DNA of 64,000 nt, taken from an uncultured delta proteobacterium. GTDB lineage: Bacteria; Desulfobacterota; RBG-13-43-22. The DNA is taken from contig CAWBOS010000010.1 of NCBI GenBank assembly GCA_963790475.1, positions 1-64,000 of the forward strand. Reading direction: 5' to 3'. Position 1 is the stretch's first letter; each line of letters begins with the position of its first letter. The position numbers and the translations under genes were made by a program. Under the pieces are notes generated by a model. The model made no database searches and was not told the origin of the DNA. It saw only the letters and a list, made by a program, of their open reading frames with translations. Positions 40,198-55,062 of this stretch are shown here, piece by piece.

Positions 40198-40744
40198 TGT
40201 AGCACAGCCGCCCTCGGCTGTGTCCTCTATATCCTTGGCAAAACCAAGCAAAGGATTTTCCCGACGTAACTTGCCGCACCTGCAAGCTGAAGAAAGAACG
40301 TTTTTTGTCACTTTTGCAACTTATAGACGATGGCACCTTCCCGAGTCGGTGAGAGAGATCATAATAAAGCACTGTCTCCATGATCATAAAACCAAATTGC
40401 AGGTCCATGGTGTTGTTGTTATGCCGGATCATGTTCACATGGTTTTTACACCTCTGAAGGATAGAATCAGGTAATCCCTTTGGCTTGCCTGAAATTATGA
40501 ATGGCATTAAAGGGGCTTCAGCCCACAGTATTAACAAGTTACTCAAGCGACGAGGTCATGTCTGGCAGGATGAATCTTTTGATCACATTTTGCGGTCAGA
40601 AGAAAAAATGATTAGTAAGGTCGAATATATCTGCCAAAATCCGGTGCGAAAGGGTCTGGTAAAAGAAGTCAGATGATTACCCCTGGCTCTGGCGGGAATG
40701 GGTGGAAGGGAAAAATGGACACAGCCGGGGGCGGCTGTGCTACA
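40198..40744 (+). mobile_element. REP-associated tyrosine transposase (RAYT/Y1) flanked by inverted GTAG-type REPs
   Basis: RRNLPH, FFVTF, VMPDHVH (HUH), WQDESFDH, YICQNPVRKGLV and YPW; ends TGTAGCACAGCCGCCCTCGGCTGTGTCC and its reverse complement with one mismatch. Confidence 0.9.
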
Positions 40745-46822: not shown

Positions 46823-46900
46823 GTCATTCCGGCGAAAGCCGGAATCCAGGGTTATCAATGCTTATTAACCTCCTGGACCCCGGTTTTCACCGGGGCGACG
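46823..46900. repeat. MITE family A core
   Basis: GTCATTCCGGCGAAAGCCGGAATCCAG..CTGGACCCCGGTTTTCACCGGGGCGACG. Confidence 0.75.
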
Positions 46901-46951
46901 ATCTGATTGGGAATTCATCAGAGGGGATACAAATAATTCAGAGGAGGGATT

Positions 46952-47350
46952 ATGGCCAAGAAGATTATCTACTCCGTGATCATTGTCTTTCTGGTTTGGA
47001 GTGTCCTGGATTATGTGATACACCAACTGATCCTGGGGGCCAGTTATCAGGCTACAGCCAACCTCTGGCGGCCCATGGCCCAGATGAAAATGGGACTCAT
47101 GTATGTGATGGTTTTTCTGGTGTCCATTGCCTTTGTCTGTCTCTATGCCCTGTTTGTGAGCAATCAAGGGATCAAAACCGGTTTCTTCTTCGGATTGATC
47201 TACGGATTCGGGGCGGCTATCTCCATGGGCTACGGAACCTTTTCCTTCATGCCCATCCCCTATCACAGGGCCTTCACCTGGTTTCTGGGGTCCGTGGTGG
47301 AGTTCACCCTTGCCGGTCTGATCGTGGGCGGGATCTGCGGGAGGAAATAA
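46952..47350 (+). CDS. small four-TM membrane protein
   Basis: GAGGAGG RBS; four hydrophobic segments. Confidence 0.8.
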   Translation: MAKKIIYSVIIVFLVWSVLDYVIHQLILGASYQATANLWRPMAQMKMGLMYVMVFLVSIAFVCLYALFVSNQGIKTGFFFGLIYGFGAAISMGYGTFSFMPIPYHRAFTWFLGSVVEFTLAGLIVGGICGRK

Positions 47351-47375
47351 GCCCAACCATTAGGAGAAATTACCT

Positions 47376-48020
47376 ATGGCGAAATGCTGGTTCTGCAAAA
47401 CGACAAAAGGGAAGAGATATTGTTCGCCCATTGACAACCTTCTTTGCCCGGTTTGCTGCGGTGAAAAGAGATTAAAAAAAATCGACTGCAATGAAGATTG
47501 TAGATACCTTGAAGGGGTTGCCTTTCAAAAAAAGCGTGACCAGGAAAAAGAATTTTCAACCTTACTGGAAAGTGTTCCCCATGGACAACATAACGATATT
47601 TTGAATGAAACTGGAGTAGCATTGATCGCCGGGGAAATTGAAACTTTCGTCTGGGAAAAATATGTATTGGAAAACATCAACCTCACCGACAAGACCGTAT
47701 ATGAATCCTATAAAGAAATGTATAAACTTCATTTTGGTAATCAACCTCTTGAAGAACATCCTTCCGATTATTTTTTCCGAGAGTTAGAAAGACTCTATTT
47801 GGACAATAGAAGGCTTTGGGAATTGAAAACGAAGCATGAGAATATTGGCCGGGTATTTTTACGTTTAATGATTTCGATAAAAAATATGAGCGGGGGCCAA
47901 TTTGGAGAATTTGGGTATTTAAATTATCTGAAAAACAACTTTGGAAATATCGATACCGATGGGCAATTCATCGTTGAAGACAAGTTTGGAAACAAAACCG
48001 TGCGGACATTAAAACCTTAG
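47376..48020 (+). CDS. hypothetical protein with N-terminal Cys-rich (Zn-finger-like) domain
   Basis: CWFC..C..CPVCC..C...C; AGGAG RBS. Confidence 0.75.
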   Translation: MAKCWFCKTTKGKRYCSPIDNLLCPVCCGEKRLKKIDCNEDCRYLEGVAFQKKRDQEKEFSTLLESVPHGQHNDILNETGVALIAGEIETFVWEKYVLENINLTDKTVYESYKEMYKLHFGNQPLEEHPSDYFFRELERLYLDNRRLWELKTKHENIGRVFLRLMISIKNMSGGQFGEFGYLNYLKNNFGNIDTDGQFIVEDKFGNKTVRTLKP

Positions 48021-48091
48021 ATGAATCGGATGTAAATTCCGACTTGACATCGGTCTTAATTTGGTACTATAAAGAGACCGGAGGTGATTCC

Positions 48092-48373
48092 ATGAATATA
48101 TCCCAAGACATAAAACCGGTTACCTACCTTAAATCAAGAGCCTCGGATCTGTTAAAGCAAATTAATGAAACCCATCGACCGGTTATCATTACTCAAAATG
48201 GAGAACCACGGGCCGTTCTGCAAGATCCTAAAAGTTATGAGGATATGCGGAACGCAATCGGAATACTGAAACTGATTTCCCAGGGCGAAGAGGAGATACA
48301 GGAAGGTAAATCTAAATCTCAGCAGGAGGTTTTTAAGGAAATTGACAATCTCTTGAAAGAAAAGTTGAAATGA
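48092..48373 (+). CDS. Phd/YefM-family antitoxin
   Basis: DIKPVTYLK..PVIITQNGEPRAVL; GGAGG RBS; ATGA overlap with the toxin gene. Confidence 0.9.
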   Translation: MNISQDIKPVTYLKSRASDLLKQINETHRPVIITQNGEPRAVLQDPKSYEDMRNAIGILKLISQGEEEIQEGKSKSQQEVFKEIDNLLKEKLK

Positions 48374-48705
48374 CCTTCCGTTATGAAGTTATCTGGGGTA
48401 GTAGTGCCGAAAGTGATCTAAAAAGAATTATCGAATACATCGCAGAGGATAACCCATCAGATGCTCTGAAAATATTCAAAACCATAAAACAAAAGACTTC
48501 CGGCCTTTTCACCTTTCCCGAAAGAGGCCGCATCGTCCCGGAGTTGCGAGATCATGGTATTTTGCAGTATCGGGAATTGATTGTTCCGCCCTGGAGAATC
48601 CTTTATCGAATATCTGAAAAACAGGTGTATGTCCTTTCCGTTCTGGATTCACGTCAAAATATAGAAGATATCCTGTTAAATAGACTCATCCGTTCAAATA
48701 CATGA
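48370..48705 (+). CDS. RelE/ParE-family toxin
   Basis: AESDL..I.EYIA.DNP, FPERGRIVPEL and YRELIV.PWRILYR. Confidence 0.9.
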   Translation: MTFRYEVIWGSSAESDLKRIIEYIAEDNPSDALKIFKTIKQKTSGLFTFPERGRIVPELRDHGILQYRELIVPPWRILYRISEKQVYVLSVLDSRQNIEDILLNRLIRSNT

Positions 48706-48824
48706 AAACTCAAAGTTCTTGAAGGAAGCTAAAAAGAACTGGATAAACAGCAAGAAAGACTTATTATCCAGCCGTACAAGTATAGTAAACTTAATTAGTT
48801 ACACCAGAGAGTCTTTTCTATTTT

Positions 48825-48883
48825 ATTGAACAGGCTGAGACTTTCTGATATTATCCAGAAAACTGTTCAATGATTTGTTAGCA
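48825..48883 (+). repeat. degenerate attC/attI-like site
   Basis: ATTGAACAG..CTGTTCAAT-5 nt-GTTAGCA; left AAC box missing. Confidence 0.45.
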
Positions 48884-48913
48884 CTAATAAGAACATGGCA
48901 ATAGGATACGATT

Positions 48914-49648
48914 ATGACATGCAGATTATGCCTTCAAACTTGCGACATTTGCAATTCACATATCGTTCCTGAATTCTTTTACAAGACTTTGTACAGCAAA
49001 GAAAAGCATAAGTTTGTCCAGCTATCTGGACCACCAAAAGTGAGAAAGTGGCAAAAAGGTTTTAAGGAAAAATTGCTTTGTAGAAATTGTGAGGACAAGC
49101 TGAACAAATGGGAAACATACGCGGCTCGAGTCTTGGTTGGTGGCACTGAGATTGGTGTTGAAAAACTACAAGAAATGATCATGGTTCATGATGTTGATTA
49201 TAAAAAATTTAAACTATTTCAACTCTCTTTATTATGGCGTGCTGGAGTGTCCGGACTGCGGCAATTCTCCAATGTCAAATTAGGACCACACGAAGAAAAG
49301 CTACGTTGCATGATAGAAAAAGATAATCCGGGCGTACCTGCTGACTATGGCTGTCTCATCATTTTTACACCATCTTATTTTGATTTAACGAGTCAAATGA
49401 TGATGCTCCCTCAAGAGTCGAAATTTGATGGCCACCGTTGCTACATATTCATAATGGCAGGTATGACATGGGTATTTTTTGTTTCTAGCCACGTGAAACA
49501 ACTGCAACATACAGAAAAAATGTTCCTTGGACTAGATGGGGTCTTGCCTGTGATGATCGAGAATGCTGCATCCAAGCTTTTTTTTGAAAGAACGTTCAGA
49601 GAATGGAAAGAATCTGGCAACCTTGATAAAGCGCTCAAAAGAATCTGA
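48914..49648 (+). CDS. hypothetical protein with HNH-like Zn-binding N-terminus (cassette-borne)
   Basis: CRLC..SHIVP..LLCRNCE; bounded by GTTAGCA and TGCTAAC. Confidence 0.75.
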   Translation: MTCRLCLQTCDICNSHIVPEFFYKTLYSKEKHKFVQLSGPPKVRKWQKGFKEKLLCRNCEDKLNKWETYAARVLVGGTEIGVEKLQEMIMVHDVDYKKFKLFQLSLLWRAGVSGLRQFSNVKLGPHEEKLRCMIEKDNPGVPADYGCLIIFTPSYFDLTSQMMMLPQESKFDGHRCYIFIMAGMTWVFFVSSHVKQLQHTEKMFLGLDGVLPVMIENAASKLFFERTFREWKESGNLDKALKRI

Positions 49649-49678
49649 TGAAATCCTAAAGAGGATTGAGGATTGAAA

Positions 49679-49733
49679 TGCTAACTAAATCATTTCACCG
49701 GAGCGCTACCGCGCCCGGGAAATTTTTTGGGAA
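49679..49733 (+). repeat. attC-like site (right box degenerate)
   Basis: TGCTAAC..TTCACCGGAGCGC-TACC-GCGCCCGGGAA..TTTGGGA. Confidence 0.6.
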
Positions 49734-49757
49734 TAAATATATTGAACAGGAGAGACT

Positions 49758-51596
49758 ATGGCAAAGATCGAAAACCATAAATACAGTATCGAAGAGGCAT
49801 TCCGCGAGTGTTTTTACATAGTCCCCGATTATCAGCGTGAGTACGTCTGGACCGACAAGGAAGTCCACCAACTCCTTGACGACATCAACGACGAAATAAC
49901 CGGACAATCGACCAAGGAATACTTCATCGGCACCATCCTGGTTTCGCCAGCCACCCTGAAAAATCATTACGAAGTGATAGACGGCCAACAACGCCTGACG
50001 ACCTTCTTTTTGCTACTCTGCGCCCTGAAGAACCTATTCAAGGGAGAATTCCAAGAATCGACCATCAGCGGGTTGATCTCCACCAGCTATACCGACAGCA
50101 ACGGTGACACCCAAACCAGCCTGAAGCTTGAACCCCGTTACGAAAATGCCGGGGAGATAATGAACAAGATAGTGGAATTAAATGAAGAGCCGATCAAAAT
50201 GAGAAATGCGGTGCAGGCTTCCGGAATCACCACTTTTGGCTCCCTGGAGAATATCATCAATGCTTACGGGACCATCTACCGCTATCTCCAAGAAAACTAC
50301 AAAGAGAAAGCACCGATGAAAAAATACTGGGGATACTTGGCAAACAACGTTGTCTTTATCCAGATATCCACCGACATCAGCAGCGCCCTGAAGATTTTCG
50401 AGACCATCAATGAGCGCGGCGTCGGCCTCAACCCGATGGACCTGCTGAAAAACCTGCTTTTCACCCACGTCAAAACCGATGAGTTCACCAAGCTGAAGGA
50501 TGAATGGAAGAAGATCACCAAGCCGCTGGAAAAGCAGAAAGAGAAGCCACTCCGCTTCCTCAGATACTTCCTGATGGCTAACTACAAGATCGAGAATGAC
50601 CGTAGCGACGCAATCGTGCGGGAAGATGAAATCTATGACTGGTTCATCAACAAGAAGAACGCAGCGCTTTGCGATTACAGCTCAAAGCCATTCGAGTTTG
50701 TCCGAAAGATCATCAGGAATGTTGAGTGGTTCATTGCCTTTTCATCAGGCAAGGGGAATGACAGTCTCGACAATTTGTACATGGACAACCTGCGGAGGCT
50801 CTGTGGCGGGGCCTTCAGTCTGCATTACGTGCTGCTTCTGGCTGCCAGCACATTCCCGAAAGCACTCTTTGACCACTTTGTCCAGCAACTGGAGAGCTTC
50901 CTGTTTTGCTACATTTTTACCAAGACGCCGACGAAAGACCTGGAGCGGAATTTCTCCGTATGGGCCGATGAACTGCGGGCAATTGCCGGGGTAACGGATG
51001 TCACGGAGCAGAAGCAAAAGCTGAACGAGTTTCTGAAGGAACGGTTCGACAAAAATATCCAGGCAAAACAGGGTGAGCTTGCCGATGACCTGAAACGCTA
51101 TACCCTCAATTCGATGCAGCAGTACCGGACTCGCTACCTGCTGGCCAAACTGACCCAGCATGTTGACATGGCCTACAAGGGACTCAGGACGCCAGGATCG
51201 TTGCAGGATTACACGGCCCTTGAGATTGAGCATATCCTTCCGAATAACCCCCAACAGGGCTTGCGTGACGACTTCACGCAGAACAACCCCGGCAAGCCGT
51301 ATGATCTCTACAAAACGATGTTGGGGAATCTTACCCTGCTGGAGAAACCGATCAATATTGTCGCCAGCAACAACTTCTTTCAGACGAAATGTGCAGAATA
51401 CAAAAAGTGCAAGTATTACCTCACCAGCAGCATTGCCGAACTTACCACCGTCGGCAACAACTCATCCATCAACCGGATCAATGCCAAGCTCCAGTCGTTC
51501 ACTGTCTGGGATGCCGCTGCCATAGAAAATCGGCAGGAACTGCTAAGCAATCTGGTTTCCGAGATTTGGAAGATCGAAGAGGTTGAAGTACCCTAA
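49758..51596 (+). CDS. DUF262-DUF1524 (GmrSD/SspE-like) NTPase-HNH nuclease
   Basis: PDYQREYVW, IDGQQRLTT and FETINERG; C-terminal IEHILP..LGNLTLL...N. Confidence 0.9.
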   Translation: MAKIENHKYSIEEAFRECFYIVPDYQREYVWTDKEVHQLLDDINDEITGQSTKEYFIGTILVSPATLKNHYEVIDGQQRLTTFFLLLCALKNLFKGEFQESTISGLISTSYTDSNGDTQTSLKLEPRYENAGEIMNKIVELNEEPIKMRNAVQASGITTFGSLENIINAYGTIYRYLQENYKEKAPMKKYWGYLANNVVFIQISTDISSALKIFETINERGVGLNPMDLLKNLLFTHVKTDEFTKLKDEWKKITKPLEKQKEKPLRFLRYFLMANYKIENDRSDAIVREDEIYDWFINKKNAALCDYSSKPFEFVRKIIRNVEWFIAFSSGKGNDSLDNLYMDNLRRLCGGAFSLHYVLLLAASTFPKALFDHFVQQLESFLFCYIFTKTPTKDLERNFSVWADELRAIAGVTDVTEQKQKLNEFLKERFDKNIQAKQGELADDLKRYTLNSMQQYRTRYLLAKLTQHVDMAYKGLRTPGSLQDYTALEIEHILPNNPQQGLRDDFTQNNPGKPYDLYKTMLGNLTLLEKPINIVASNNFFQTKCAEYKKCKYYLTSSIAELTTVGNNSSINRINAKLQSFTVWDAAAIENRQELLSNLVSEIWKIEEVEVP

Positions 51597-51669
51597 TGGC
51601 CCGTGGAGAAGCAAAAGGGGACAGCCTACTTTTTGAGCTATGCAGACAATATTTTCGAGATAGCGTGAC

Positions 51670-51717
51670 TACCAACCAGCGACTCGACCCCTCAAGCGGG
51701 TCAGCCGCGCGTTGGGC
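51670..51717 (+). repeat. attC site
   Basis: TACCAAC..GCGACT(C)GACCC / GGGTCAGCCGC..GTTGGGC with an extrahelical base. Confidence 0.7.
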
Positions 51718-51751
51718 ATCTAAACCAAAGAAAAACTCGTGAGGCGTAAGG

Positions 51752-53317
51752 ATGAAGGTACTACAGCGAATCAAACTGAAGAATTTCAAAAGATTCGAAA
51801 ATTTTGATTCGAATTTCGATGCAAACCTCAACCTTCTAATTGGCGATAACGAATCAGGCAAAAGTACAATCCTACTGGCCGTGGACCTTGTGTTGAGCGG
51901 CAGCAGGGGTAAGATAGAGGCCATTGGTTTGGAGAATCTCTTTAATACAGAAGTTGTCAGTACATTCTTGACTTCCGAGAAGAGGCTTGAGGATTTACCT
52001 ATTCTTTTTGTAGAGGTCTATCTGAATGAACAGAGCGACCCAGACTTCAACGGAAAGAACTGTTCAGAAGACAGAGTATGTGATGGGCTACAGTTTCTGT
52101 GTGAGCCAATCGATGCGCTCGGGAAAGACATAAAACGGATTTTGGACGAGAAAGACCCTGTTTTTCCTTTTGAATACTATGAGACGAAGTTTCTCTCTTT
52201 TGCCGGAAAACCCTACGTGGGTTATAACAGACCCATAAGACATCTTTTCATCGATAACACACAAATCGATAATGAGTATGCAACACGGGAGTACATAAAG
52301 GACCTTTATGATACCAACATCGAAGGAACTGAGAGGAATAAACATCGGAATGAATATAGGAAATACAAAGAGCAGTTCAAGAATAACGTCCTAAGCGGCC
52401 TCAACAAAAGACTCGATAGGTATTCTTTCGTTGTTAAAACAAGTGGCAAAGCGAATTTGGAATCAGACCTCACGATTTGCCAAGATGGGATTACTATCGA
52501 GAATAAAGGAAAGGGGCAGCAATGCTTCATTAAGACGGAGTTCGCTTTGAAAAAACCGGGGCAAAAGAAGAATATTGATATTCTGCTGTTGGAAGAGCCA
52601 GAAAATCACCTGAGCCATATCAACATGAAGAAGCTAATCCACCGAATACAGGAGCCCTCAGAGAAACAGATATTTATAGCGACTCACAGCAATCTCGTTA
52701 GTGCGAGACTTGACCTGAGAAAATGTATTTTGCTGAATAGTAGCAGTACCAATCCTACCTCGCTGGCCGACCTTTCTGAGCCGACGGCAGGGTTCTTCAT
52801 GAAGGCCCCGGACAACAACATTCTTGAGTTTATCTTGTCAAAGAAGGTGGTCCTTGTAGAAGGCGACGCCGAGTATATTTTGGCTGAATCATTTTACAAG
52901 AAGATCACAAAGGAGGCACCCGAAGACTCCGACACACATATAATTTCTGTTGGCGGGACAAGCTTTAAAAGATATCTTGAGTTGGCCCGACTTCTGAAAA
53001 TCAAAACAGCGGTGATTCGTGATAACGACGGAGACTACCAGCAAAATTGTGTCGATAGGTATTCGGAATACATTTGCGATCACATTAAGGTGTTTTCTGA
53101 CGGAGACAATGAGAGGCCTACCTTTGAAATCTGCCTATACGAAGACAATAAGGCTATCTGCGACGATCTCTTTGGGCAACAAAGGAAAACCTTAAGCGTA
53201 AAGGACTACATGCTTAAGAACAAGGCAGAGGCAGCTTTCTTATTGTTGCAGAACAAGGCGGACGCATTGTGTTCGCCGAATTACATAATGAAAGCAATAC
53301 AGTGGATAAGAGAGTAA
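51752..53317 (+). CDS. gajA: Gabija GajA (OLD-family ABC ATPase + TOPRIM nuclease)
   Basis: NFKRF, GDNESGKS, LLEEPENHL, ATHS, LVEGDAE and RDND. Confidence 0.87.
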   Translation: MKVLQRIKLKNFKRFENFDSNFDANLNLLIGDNESGKSTILLAVDLVLSGSRGKIEAIGLENLFNTEVVSTFLTSEKRLEDLPILFVEVYLNEQSDPDFNGKNCSEDRVCDGLQFLCEPIDALGKDIKRILDEKDPVFPFEYYETKFLSFAGKPYVGYNRPIRHLFIDNTQIDNEYATREYIKDLYDTNIEGTERNKHRNEYRKYKEQFKNNVLSGLNKRLDRYSFVVKTSGKANLESDLTICQDGITIENKGKGQQCFIKTEFALKKPGQKKNIDILLLEEPENHLSHINMKKLIHRIQEPSEKQIFIATHSNLVSARLDLRKCILLNSSSTNPTSLADLSEPTAGFFMKAPDNNILEFILSKKVVLVEGDAEYILAESFYKKITKEAPEDSDTHIISVGGTSFKRYLELARLLKIKTAVIRDNDGDYQQNCVDRYSEYICDHIKVFSDGDNERPTFEICLYEDNKAICDDLFGQQRKTLSVKDYMLKNKAEAAFLLLQNKADALCSPNYIMKAIQWIRE

Positions 53318-54339
53318 TACTTGCTGTTGCAGGTTCAGGCAAGACCACACACATCGTGAATAGTTTAGGCAGCCTCAACCCAGGTGTAAGATCACTTGTT
53401 ATAACGTATACCAGAAACAACCTCAGCAATTTGAGGACCAAGATAATTCGCAAATTCGGATACTTTCCAGAGAACATATCATTGTACGAGTATTTTGCGT
53501 TCTTGTATGGTTTCTGCTTCAGGCCGTTCCTGCTTAGGAATACAAGAGCAAAAGGTATCAACTGGGAGGCGCCGCCAGCTTGGACATTGCGTAAAGAAAG
53601 AACCAGCAAGGAATACTACTTCGACAAGTACAGTAAACTATACCACAACAGAATAGCCAAGTACCTGGAATTTAAAGGTGTCTTGGATCTCGTCAATCAG
53701 CGGATAGAGAGGTACTATGATAATCTTCTTGTTGATGAGGTGCAGGATTTCGGGGGACACGATTTCAACTTTCTTCGGACCATCGTGCAATCAAAAGTGA
53801 CCATACTTTTTGTCGGGGATTTCTACCAACACACATTCGACACAAGCAGGGATGGAAACGTTAACAAGAATCTGTACAGTGACCTGAATGTCTATAAAGG
53901 GCTTCTGAGAAAGATGGGTCTGGCGGTAGATTCGGACACATTGAGCAAGAGCTATAGATGTAGTCCAACGATTTGCCGCTTCATCTCAAAGAATTTGGGG
54001 ATAGATATGGAATCTCACCGAGACGACGAGACGGCAATGCACGCTCTTGCCACAAAAGGTGACGCCGGTGTGGTGCTTAAATGCAACAACACGGTAAAAC
54101 TCTTCTACAGAGAACATTACAAATACGGTTGTTACTCGAAAAACTGGGGCGACTCGAAGGGTGCAGATCACTATTCGGATGTTTGCGTTGTCCTAAATAA
54201 GGAAACATTTCAAAAGTTCCAAAAGAAGCGGCTAAGCGAGTTGAAGCCGCAAACGAGGAACAAGCTTTACGTTGCGTGCACGCGGGCAAGGAACAATCTC
54301 TACTTAATCCCAGAGACTTTCTACCAAGGAAGCGGATGA
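53302..54339 (+). CDS. gajB: Gabija GajB (compact UvrD-like helicase)
   Basis: AVAGSGKT, ITYT, VDEVQD, VGDFYQ, SYRC and LYVACTRAR; GTG start overlaps the gajA stop. Confidence 0.87.
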   Translation: MDKRVILAVAGSGKTTHIVNSLGSLNPGVRSLVITYTRNNLSNLRTKIIRKFGYFPENISLYEYFAFLYGFCFRPFLLRNTRAKGINWEAPPAWTLRKERTSKEYYFDKYSKLYHNRIAKYLEFKGVLDLVNQRIERYYDNLLVDEVQDFGGHDFNFLRTIVQSKVTILFVGDFYQHTFDTSRDGNVNKNLYSDLNVYKGLLRKMGLAVDSDTLSKSYRCSPTICRFISKNLGIDMESHRDDETAMHALATKGDAGVVLKCNNTVKLFYREHYKYGCYSKNWGDSKGADHYSDVCVVLNKETFQKFQKKRLSELKPQTRNKLYVACTRARNNLYLIPETFYQGSG

Positions 54340-54388
54340 AGACGGGGTCAGTGAAGTACAGAAGACAATTGTGAATCAGATGGGCATT

Positions 54389-54442
54389 GCCCAACAAAGC
54401 AATCCAGCGGGCGTCTTACAGCCGCTGATTTTGGCGTTATAA
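54389..54442 (+). repeat. attC site
   Basis: GCCCAAC..AATC(C)AGCGG / CCGCTGATT..GTTATAA; GCCCAAC is the reverse complement of GTTGGGC at 51711. Confidence 0.8.
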
Positions 54443-54459
54443 GGTGAGTTTGTTGAGAA

Positions 54460-55062
54460 ATGAAAACAAATAAGGAAAGTATTATTAGTCGTTGTCCCTG
54501 GGTCGATTTGAGTAATGTCGATTATGTGGAATATCACGATAAGGAATGGGGTGTTCCGGTCTATGAAGACCGATTGATCTTTGAATTTTTGTCTTTGGAA
54601 TCCGCCCAGGCCGGTTTATCCTGGCTCACCGTTCTAAAAAAGAGAGAGAATTACCGCAGGGCCTTTGAAAATTTCGAACCGAAAAAGATTTCCCGATTTG
54701 ATCAGGCCAAAATTGAAGAATTGTTGCTGAATCCCGGAATCATTCGGAATAGATTGAAGATTGAAGCAACGGTAAATAATGCCCGGGAATTTCTTGAAGT
54801 TCAGAAAGAATATGGGAGTTTTTCGAAATATATATGGAGTTTTGTCGGCGGCAAACCCAAAATCAGCAAGATAAGGAAATTAGCGGATTACCCGGCAACC
54901 AGCAAAGAGTCGGACGCCTTGAGCCAAGACTTGAAACATAGAGGTTTTAAATTTTTGGGTTCTACCATATGTTACGCGCATATGCAGGCTACGGGGTTGG
55001 TAAACGACCACTCTCTGGATTGTTTCAGGAGAAGCGAAATAATTGAGCTATATGGAAAATAA
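54460..55062 (+). CDS. tag: DNA-3-methyladenine glycosylase I
   Basis: RCPW, YHDKEWG, QAGLSW, IIRNRLKI and MQATGLVNDH...C. Confidence 0.95.
   Translation: MKTNKESIISRCPWVDLSNVDYVEYHDKEWGVPVYEDRLIFEFLSLESAQAGLSWLTVLKKRENYRRAFENFEPKKISRFDQAKIEELLLNPGIIRNRLKIEATVNNAREFLEVQKEYGSFSKYIWSFVGGKPKISKIRKLADYPATSKESDALSQDLKHRGFKFLGSTICYAHMQATGLVNDHSLDCFRRSEIIELYGK

Follow-up and report, generated by a model that had tools for sequence, protein, structure and literature searches.

An integron cassette array that lacks a neighboring integrase gene, headed by a putative orphan attI and carrying predicted defense genes

Anatomy of the array

We analyzed a stretch of 64,000 nucleotides from an uncultured delta proteobacterium (contig CAWBOS010000010.1; hereafter the window), which corresponds to C10:1-64000 of the host assembly (G000; 6.34 Mb, 20 contigs). 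The region 48825..54442 harbors three gene cassettes, whose genes all have the same orientation, as a preliminary description made from the letters alone had stated. They lie behind an attachment site, attI, and no integron integrase gene (intI) is found beside them. That this region represents an integron cassette array without adjacent intI is virtually certain. Two attC sites (51670-51717 and 54389-54442) were detected on one strand with a covariance model, and neither profile search nor tblastn revealed an intI nearby, which corresponds to the published definition of an attC cluster without an integrase (CALIN), namely, two or more attC sites and no nearby intI (PMC4889954). The array had been labeled CALIN-like, and this holds for the missing integrase gene. 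However, it is not a bare attC cluster, since it possesses an attI and a predicted cassette promoter (Pc) and belongs to a multicopy family. Nor is it a complete integron, in which intI would lie beside attI. The toxin-antitoxin (TA) pair reported upstream was confirmed by profile but precedes attI and is thus outside the array; no attC covariance-model match follows it. The features are as follows; a slash marks the crossover point.

48092 to 48373, + strand: Phd/YefM antitoxin gene (PF02604, E 1e-15; TIGR01552), 5' of attI and outside the array
48370 to 48705, + strand: ParE/RelE-family toxin gene (PF05016, E 6e-19); the TA pair occupies the position of intI
48721 to 48877, + strand: putative orphan integron platform, spanning everything between intI and attI, from near the start codon of intI up to the crossover G
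48779 to 48807, - strand: predicted decayed integrase promoter (Pint), -10 present, -35 gone
48826 to 48854, + strand: predicted Pc, sigma-70 type, 17-nt spacer, extended -10 TG
48848 to 48883, + strand: attI core, crossover G48877/T48878
48878 to 49726, + strand: cassette 1 (849 bp), open reading frame (ORF) 48914-49648 encoding a 244-amino-acid (aa) CxxC/SH/CxxC protein
49679 to 49733, + strand: decayed cassette 1 attC, which retains R'' and the hairpin but not the G/TT
49727 to 51711, + strand: cassette 2 (1985 bp), ORF 49758-51596 encoding a GmrSD-like DUF262-DUF1524 nuclease of 612 aa
51670 to 51717, + strand: attC of 48 bp with one predicted extrahelical base, 24.7 bits
51712 to 54436, + strand: cassette 3 (2725 bp), Gabija-like gajA (51752-53317) and gajB (53302-54339)
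54389 to 54442, + strand: attC of 54 bp, crossover G54436, 46 bits, top covariance-model match in the genome
54460 to 55062, + strand: tag, 3-methyladenine DNA glycosylase I (TIGR00624, above cut-off), conserved right flank

Two intact attC sites and a decayed one

Because pattern-only attC scans were noisy (38 matches in the genome, against a control rate of 12 per 2 Mb), a covariance model was built from 22 of 27 attC sites located beside intI genes of other genomes, five rows having been dropped after the first alignment. In its alignment, partly by construction, 96% of the cells were paired and compensatory changes were present in 9 of the 13 pairs. Applied to the 64-kb window with filters off, the model ranked 54389-54442 first (46 bits, E 9e-9) and 51670-51717 second (24.7 bits, E 0.0015), both on the bottom strand, and the next unrelated match reached 9.7 bits. 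Both sites display the R''-L''...L'-R' boxes, the AAC/GTT core, a bottom-strand hairpin, and an extrahelical L'' base, which a structural scan placed at L'' position 4 together with 5-nt spacers; the preliminary description had already seen this base in both. The predicted fold of the 54389 site was by itself no better than that of shuffled sequences (z -0.8), and its support therefore comes from the covariance model. The 51670 site was likewise correctly reported as short. Sites of 48 bp are natural, being also present beside intI in other genomes (L068, L106, L145, and L150). The predicted fold of this site contains one extrahelical base, and attC sites are described in PMC2727003 with two or three.

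Four attC-like sites had originally been proposed, of which these two are intact. At 49679, R'' and a hairpin (z -3.7) are still present, but a T has replaced the crossover G and the right spacer is 3 to 4 nt short; we read this site as a decayed attC. With filters off, neither this site nor 48883 gave a covariance-model match in the window, and Rfam had no match there either. The 48883 site was rejected as an attC, given the missing model match and its homology to attI. Pairing between each cassette end and its own start amounted to 7/7, 6/7, and 7/7 positions for cassettes 1, 2, and 3, which bears out the pairing described for cassettes 1 and 3. Covariance-model matches, bottom-strand folds and, as described below, variable synteny were thus all found.

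The array starts with an attI related to those of intact integrons

The head of the array is very probably an orphan attI with a predicted Pc and not a decayed attC. Over 102 bp (48779-48879) it shares 81% identity with the DNA 5' of an intact intI in L089, and the window copy reaches back about 155 bp, to the point where intI starts in that locus. BLAST with 48701-48900 recovered seven further copies, whose similarity stops at or just before G/TT. A profile of this attI matched 16 of 80 intI loci, many of which lack upstream DNA in the available sequence. All 16 matches lie directly upstream of intI on the opposite strand and end in GTT; 11 of them have E<1e-3, the best being L089 (E 3.7e-18). 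The same type of head was found at L079, from the same genus, and L087 has an extra profile match downstream of a 5'-truncated intI. Column conservation (27 rows) was 0.67 to 0.96 before the crossover and mostly 0.3 to 0.56 after the TT. The platform is hence both homologous to an intI-adjacent site and conserved up to G/TT, and different cassettes are joined at this G/TT in its copies within G000 and in the orthologue of G008, a genome of the same genus.

The intact intI-Pint/Pc-attI platform of the L089, L100, and L079 clade has the same intergenic sequence, Pc position, and G/TT crossover. In contrast to it, the window type lacks intI, has lost the -35 of Pint, and occurs in many copies at unrelated loci, and G000 holds two or three attI types. 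Of the 32 solo copies, 30 have a predicted Pc that matches at least 9/12 consensus positions, as do 15 of the 16 intI-linked copies. The window Pint matches 7/12 positions, compared to a mean of 9.75 in the 16 linked copies, and a Pint with a TTG -35 and at least 9/12 matches was predicted in 15/16 linked copies but only 1/32 solo copies (1/22 when limited to those still homologous there). The platform copies are related, so these counts are not independent trials. Taken as a whole, the promoter scan did no better than chance (15 versus 11.7).

The platform contains three occurrences of an 8-base motif (48738-48771 and 48851-48858), two of which form an inverted pair close to Pint, the third lying over the -10 of Pc. 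It is possible that these are binding sites of a regulator or of the integrase.

Orphan attI copies are dispersed in the genome

The census of G000 yielded 30 attI copies of two types, 8 of the window type and 22 of a second type found with a profile of four attI sites of the other integrase clade; one variant added later brings the number to 31. Reversed-genome controls gave no attI-profile match under E 0.2. A 22-base attI pattern was present in 9 of 20 genomes of the same family and in 0 of 20 of other families, and the 22 pattern matches in relatives had no intact intI in their 1.5-kb flanks, one showing a 5' remnant. The metagenome pattern scan for attI returned only 2 loci. In G000, 9/31 copies are followed on the same strand by a model-detected attC within 6 kb, a lower bound since 150 of 780 attC candidates were scored. 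The corresponding values were 1.2% for random positions, 0/31 on the wrong strand, and 1 on the other side. Two pattern-detected attC sites at C10:1763148 likewise make 9/31 a lower bound.

The best TIGR02249 match in G000 scored 105 bits, compared to a cut-off of 265, and none lay in the window; tblastn of G000 with two IntI proteins of the genus found only a 5' remnant at C10:587184-587336, 540 kb away, and distant recombinases. IntI above the cut-off was detected in 6 of 13 genomes of the same genus.

The left ends of the copies differ. In three genomes, five long copies located at different loci have a common left end near -294. A segment of about 140 bp where intI would be is common to seven long solo copies, which come from several genomes and score 127 to 248 among themselves and 41 to 67 against intact intI. 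The shared end and a segment that is not recognizably intI suggest a unit that spread after intI had been lost. Other copies have ragged left ends, from -41 to beyond -300, or an intI stub, which suggests local erosion. Both processes may have taken place. Reading -300 to -155 of the long solo copies as a decayed 5' end of intI was unsupported past the first 4 to 5 codons (z ≤2.8, tblastn E ≥0.12). An IntI-type G/TT at the left end of the long modules was inconsistent, and their junctions do not support IntI-mediated spread. A tree of 24 platform rows grouped 17 solo copies with weak support (83/69) and was not used as evidence.

Two loci of another genome show further arrangements. In G009:C5 (L021/L062), a window-type attI is directed toward the 3' end of a 5'-truncated intI, with two small genes in between, and in G009:C48 (L082) a similar gene set is bracketed by two attI copies.

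The cassettes recur separately and synteny at the locus is not fixed

Comparisons with other copies indicate that the three cassettes move separately, each of them recurring elsewhere from the same boundary. Run X1 resembles the source organism and X20, an RNA run, resembles G347; neither was counted as independent, and X20 does not inform on expression of the array. Cassette 1 has a 92% copy at C10:1379157-1378328, which begins at the same base and is the second cassette behind an attI of the other type. The bases that differ between these copies number 12, 12, and 32 at the three codon positions. An X13 contig matches this cassette over 48875-49711. The protein of cassette 2 has copies of 95 to 96% aa identity in 2 of 400 genomes of the phylum, both from other families, and the DNA is 92 to 95.5% identical. 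In one of them (G347), similarity begins at 49727, right after an attC, and in the other (G332) the cassette follows an attI-like G/TT and ends in a different attC of 59 bp. Contigs of X4 and X7 also match from 49727 and carry the 48-bp site, up to 51708 and 51703, and the boundary in the X20 contig is likewise at 49727. For cassette 3, an X13 contig matches from exactly 51711, with other DNA before it. Independent cassette copies hence break at the predicted crossover. The DNA of the Gabija cassette was not found in the 20 relatives searched, GajB had no match at E 1e-40 in the 400 phylum genomes, and plasmid and viral relatives were less than 60% identical. The copy of cassette 1 at C10:1379157 (L054) starts with a 10-base tandem duplication, after an internally deleted or unusually long attC.

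To compare the locus itself, 13 corresponding regions were fetched, six of which reach tag. G008 has the same TA pair and attI (82% over 48020-48897), followed after G/TT by two other ORFs and an attC. G005 harbors three other attC sites (57, 57, and 58 bp) before tag, and G010 nothing but the membrane gene described below and a single attC; G012 diverges after 48720 and has the TA pair but no platform, and G004 and G011 have other genes. Synteny is therefore not fixed. The genes flanking the array are 79 to 86% identical between G000 and G008. Since these two genomes share the intI-less junction and the GmrSD-like cassette is closer to copies in other families, cassettes seem to have moved after intI was lost. 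This is the simplest reading, assuming comparable rates and an inherited junction.

The 288-aa cassette gene behind the orthologous attI of G008 (L211) has a look-alike with its own attC in G000 (C13:45692-46622). On the right flank, tag, which has an attC before it in G000, G005, and G010, starts with a G/TT core (54436-55062). It could be an old fixed cassette or a favored insertion site. On the left, a 132-aa membrane gene (46952-47358) ends in an R''-like heptamer, followed in G010 by an attC (22.6 bits), and is likely an older cassette 5' of the TA pair. A 214-aa Cys-rich ORF (47376-48020), without Pfam, NCBIfam, or PADLOC match, also occurs 5' of tag in G004 and G011.

Two of the three cassettes encode predicted defense systems

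The array had been described as loaded with defense genes, and profiles support this for cassettes 2 and 3 but not for cassette 1. Cassette 3 encodes adjacent GajA (ABC ATPase and OLD TOPRIM; PADLOC E 1.6e-112) and GajB (UvrD-like helicase; PADLOC E 9e-53), the gene composition of Gabija. Walker A/B, the H-loop, the TOPRIM E and DxD, and the helicase motifs are present. GmrSD is a type IV, modification-dependent system, and the 612-aa protein of cassette 2 contains both of its domains (PF03235 and PF07510), which confirms the DUF262-DUF1524 assignment, as well as DGQQR and HNH-type EHxxP...GNL motifs. Its top PADLOC models are Orf5 and HEC-06, with mREase_IV at only E 1.6e-12. Judging from these similarities, both cassettes would protect against phage.

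The label HNH-like given to the gene of cassette 1 could not be established. Its protein had no Pfam, NCBIfam, or PADLOC match and, at a model pLDDT (predicted local distance difference test) of 84.6, no PDB-sequence, Foldseek, or VIA-align match, which by itself need not indicate a new fold. All of its 121 homologues lack annotation, and S15, H16, C56, and C59 are invariant in 64 of them. HNH_5 matched 1 of these 64 members weakly (E 0.011), 13% of the members of a neighboring Atlas family have HNH_5, and the fold search gave nothing above Z 2.8, with McrA at Z 2.0. A relationship to HNH proteins is thus a weak lead.

Origin of the array

We consider it likely that, once the local intI had been lost, an IntI acting in trans loaded or reshuffled this orphan attI-headed array. 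This agrees with the preliminary description, which had attributed the array to an IntI now located elsewhere or lost. According to standard chemistry, IntI would recombine folded attC bottom strands into the G/TT of attI. Pc would drive promoterless cassettes, which could account for the retention of Pc and attI alongside the decay of Pint. More tentatively, and with less than even confidence, we propose that the Pc-attI head could be a nonautonomous module that has spread on its own after shedding intI, giving this lineage a distributed integron of some 30 expressed landing pads along the chromosome that a visiting integrase might reload with cargo up to the size of a Gabija operon.

Several observations weigh against loading in trans. 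IntI was found neither in G000 nor in G008, and the trans-acting enzyme is therefore hypothetical; the assembly consists of 20 contigs with 9.7% contamination. No attC was detected downstream of 22/31 attI copies, and the figure of 9/31 includes three copies in one cluster and one added later (8/30 without the latter). GTT is kept in only 18/31 copies, and many of them look eroded. Of the 28 model-detected attC sites, 17 have no known attI within 10 kb upstream. Part of the conservation of Pc in 30/32 solo copies is by construction, because these copies were chosen by a pattern covering the -10 of Pc. Finally, the first attC is decayed and a close relative in run X2 has the same order of attI, cassette 1, and cassette 2, so that the array may be static now.

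The array could alternatively be the frozen remnant of a complete integron, with a local intI deletion and static cassettes, the 30 copies then being as many separately decayed integrons. The decayed first attC and the ragged left ends, from -41 to beyond -300, would fit this, as would the intI 5' remnant of one type-1 copy (C10:586945-587336) and that of L037, and IntI decay is known in Xanthomonas (10.1101/2025.06.18.660453). We nevertheless hold this to be unlikely, since G000 and G008 have the same intI-less junction but cassettes that differ at the exact crossover, the GmrSD-like cassette appears younger than the split between the two genomes, and the segment of about 140 bp common to seven long solo copies points to spread after intI loss.

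It is very improbable that a non-IntI tyrosine recombinase of the genome, for instance the 314-aa enzyme at C10:1651376 and C11:98089, services the attI and attC sites. With 105 bits this enzyme is the genome's best TIGR02249 match, and an attI-headed array contains one of its copies, between C10:1654791 and the attC at 1651128. In the model alignment, however, it lacks about 34 positions between 177 and 235, the expected place of the IntI-specific insertion, and it is about 30% identical to the IntI proteins of the genus. The attI families match true intI loci. Even less credible at this locus is a CALIN formed by cassette insertion at a chance chromosomal site (attG) beside a host promoter, without attI. 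Such insertion has been shown experimentally and proposed for small CALINs (10.1101/2022.09.11.507474), and 17/28 attC sites in the genome have no detected attI upstream. Here, the homology of the head to an intI-linked attI (E 3.7e-18; 81% over 102 bp) and its recurrence 8 times refute this origin, which may still hold for other arrays of G000.

Relation to known integrase-less arrays

The array shares with CALINs at least two attC sites, a single strand, and the absence of intI, but differs from them in keeping an attI and a predicted Pc. In the CALIN survey (PMC4889954), 95% had no intI pseudogene, and its tool matches attI only for classes 1 to 3, so that heads like this one would go unseen. 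CALINs are usable in trans (PMC9668308). Small integrase-less arrays have been explained in the literature by intI loss, by rearrangement, and by attG insertion. Loading in trans could be tested at this array with a cognate IntI, since it keeps its attI and predicted promoter, is multicopy, and apparently exchanged cassettes after intI was lost. If the Pc-attI head is indeed a module that spreads on its own, many CALINs would be live, promoter-bearing platforms with an unrecognized attI.

Our literature searches found single cases only and no paper devoted to multiplied or solo attI sites. An attI also stands at the start of an integrase-less array in the Shewanella prophage M16-3 (PMC9892861), but there a single additional attI shares its prophage with a complete integron, in contrast to about 30 chromosome-wide copies in a genome where IntI was not found. 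Delta-attI-type cassettes of mobile integrons (PMC12901181) are attI pieces away from intI and IntI1 substrates; they lie inside class 1 and 2 arrays, 3' of an ORF, whereas the window has a separate array that begins with a full Pc-attI head. Like the attG insertions and single attC sites lacking an integrase (SALIN) of 10.1101/2022.09.11.507474, the cassettes of the window are outside a complete integron and would have been placed by IntI in trans, but attG sites are unrelated to attI. According to the same source, attI1 itself has no significant insertion rate into genomes, and the attG work does therefore not explain the dispersal of attI.

Defense cassettes and CALINs are already published, and the defense part alone is an expected extension of that work. 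Bacteriophage resistance integron cassettes (BRiCs; 10.1101/2024.07.02.601719 and 10.64898/2026.03.17.712381) likewise include two-gene systems, compared to which those of the window are large (2.0 and 2.7 kb) and from Desulfobacterota. The words Gabija and GmrSD are absent from the main texts of these two papers, and Vibrio integron defense papers may list them. What the locus adds is an attI type linked to an intact integrase clade, with Pint apparently lost and Pc kept, an exchange of cassettes at an intI-less orthologous locus, and the precise limits of a Gabija-like and a GmrSD-like cassette. A complete Gabija-like pair and a GmrSD-like nuclease thus travel as cassettes among Desulfobacterota.

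Other features of the window and the genome

The region of the 314-aa recombinase is present in two copies (C10:1651376-1653314 and C11:98089), and we take the neighboring gene to be an IS91-type transposase. At 40220-40676 lies a split ORF that, from its motifs, is presumably related to transposases associated with repetitive extragenic palindromes (REP); neither piece has a Pfam match. A palindromic, REP-like intergenic repeat of about 79 bp at 46823-46901 has 128 BLAST matches in the genome and many in relatives, and one copy of it adjoins an ORF on C13 that we assume to be GIY-YIG-like.

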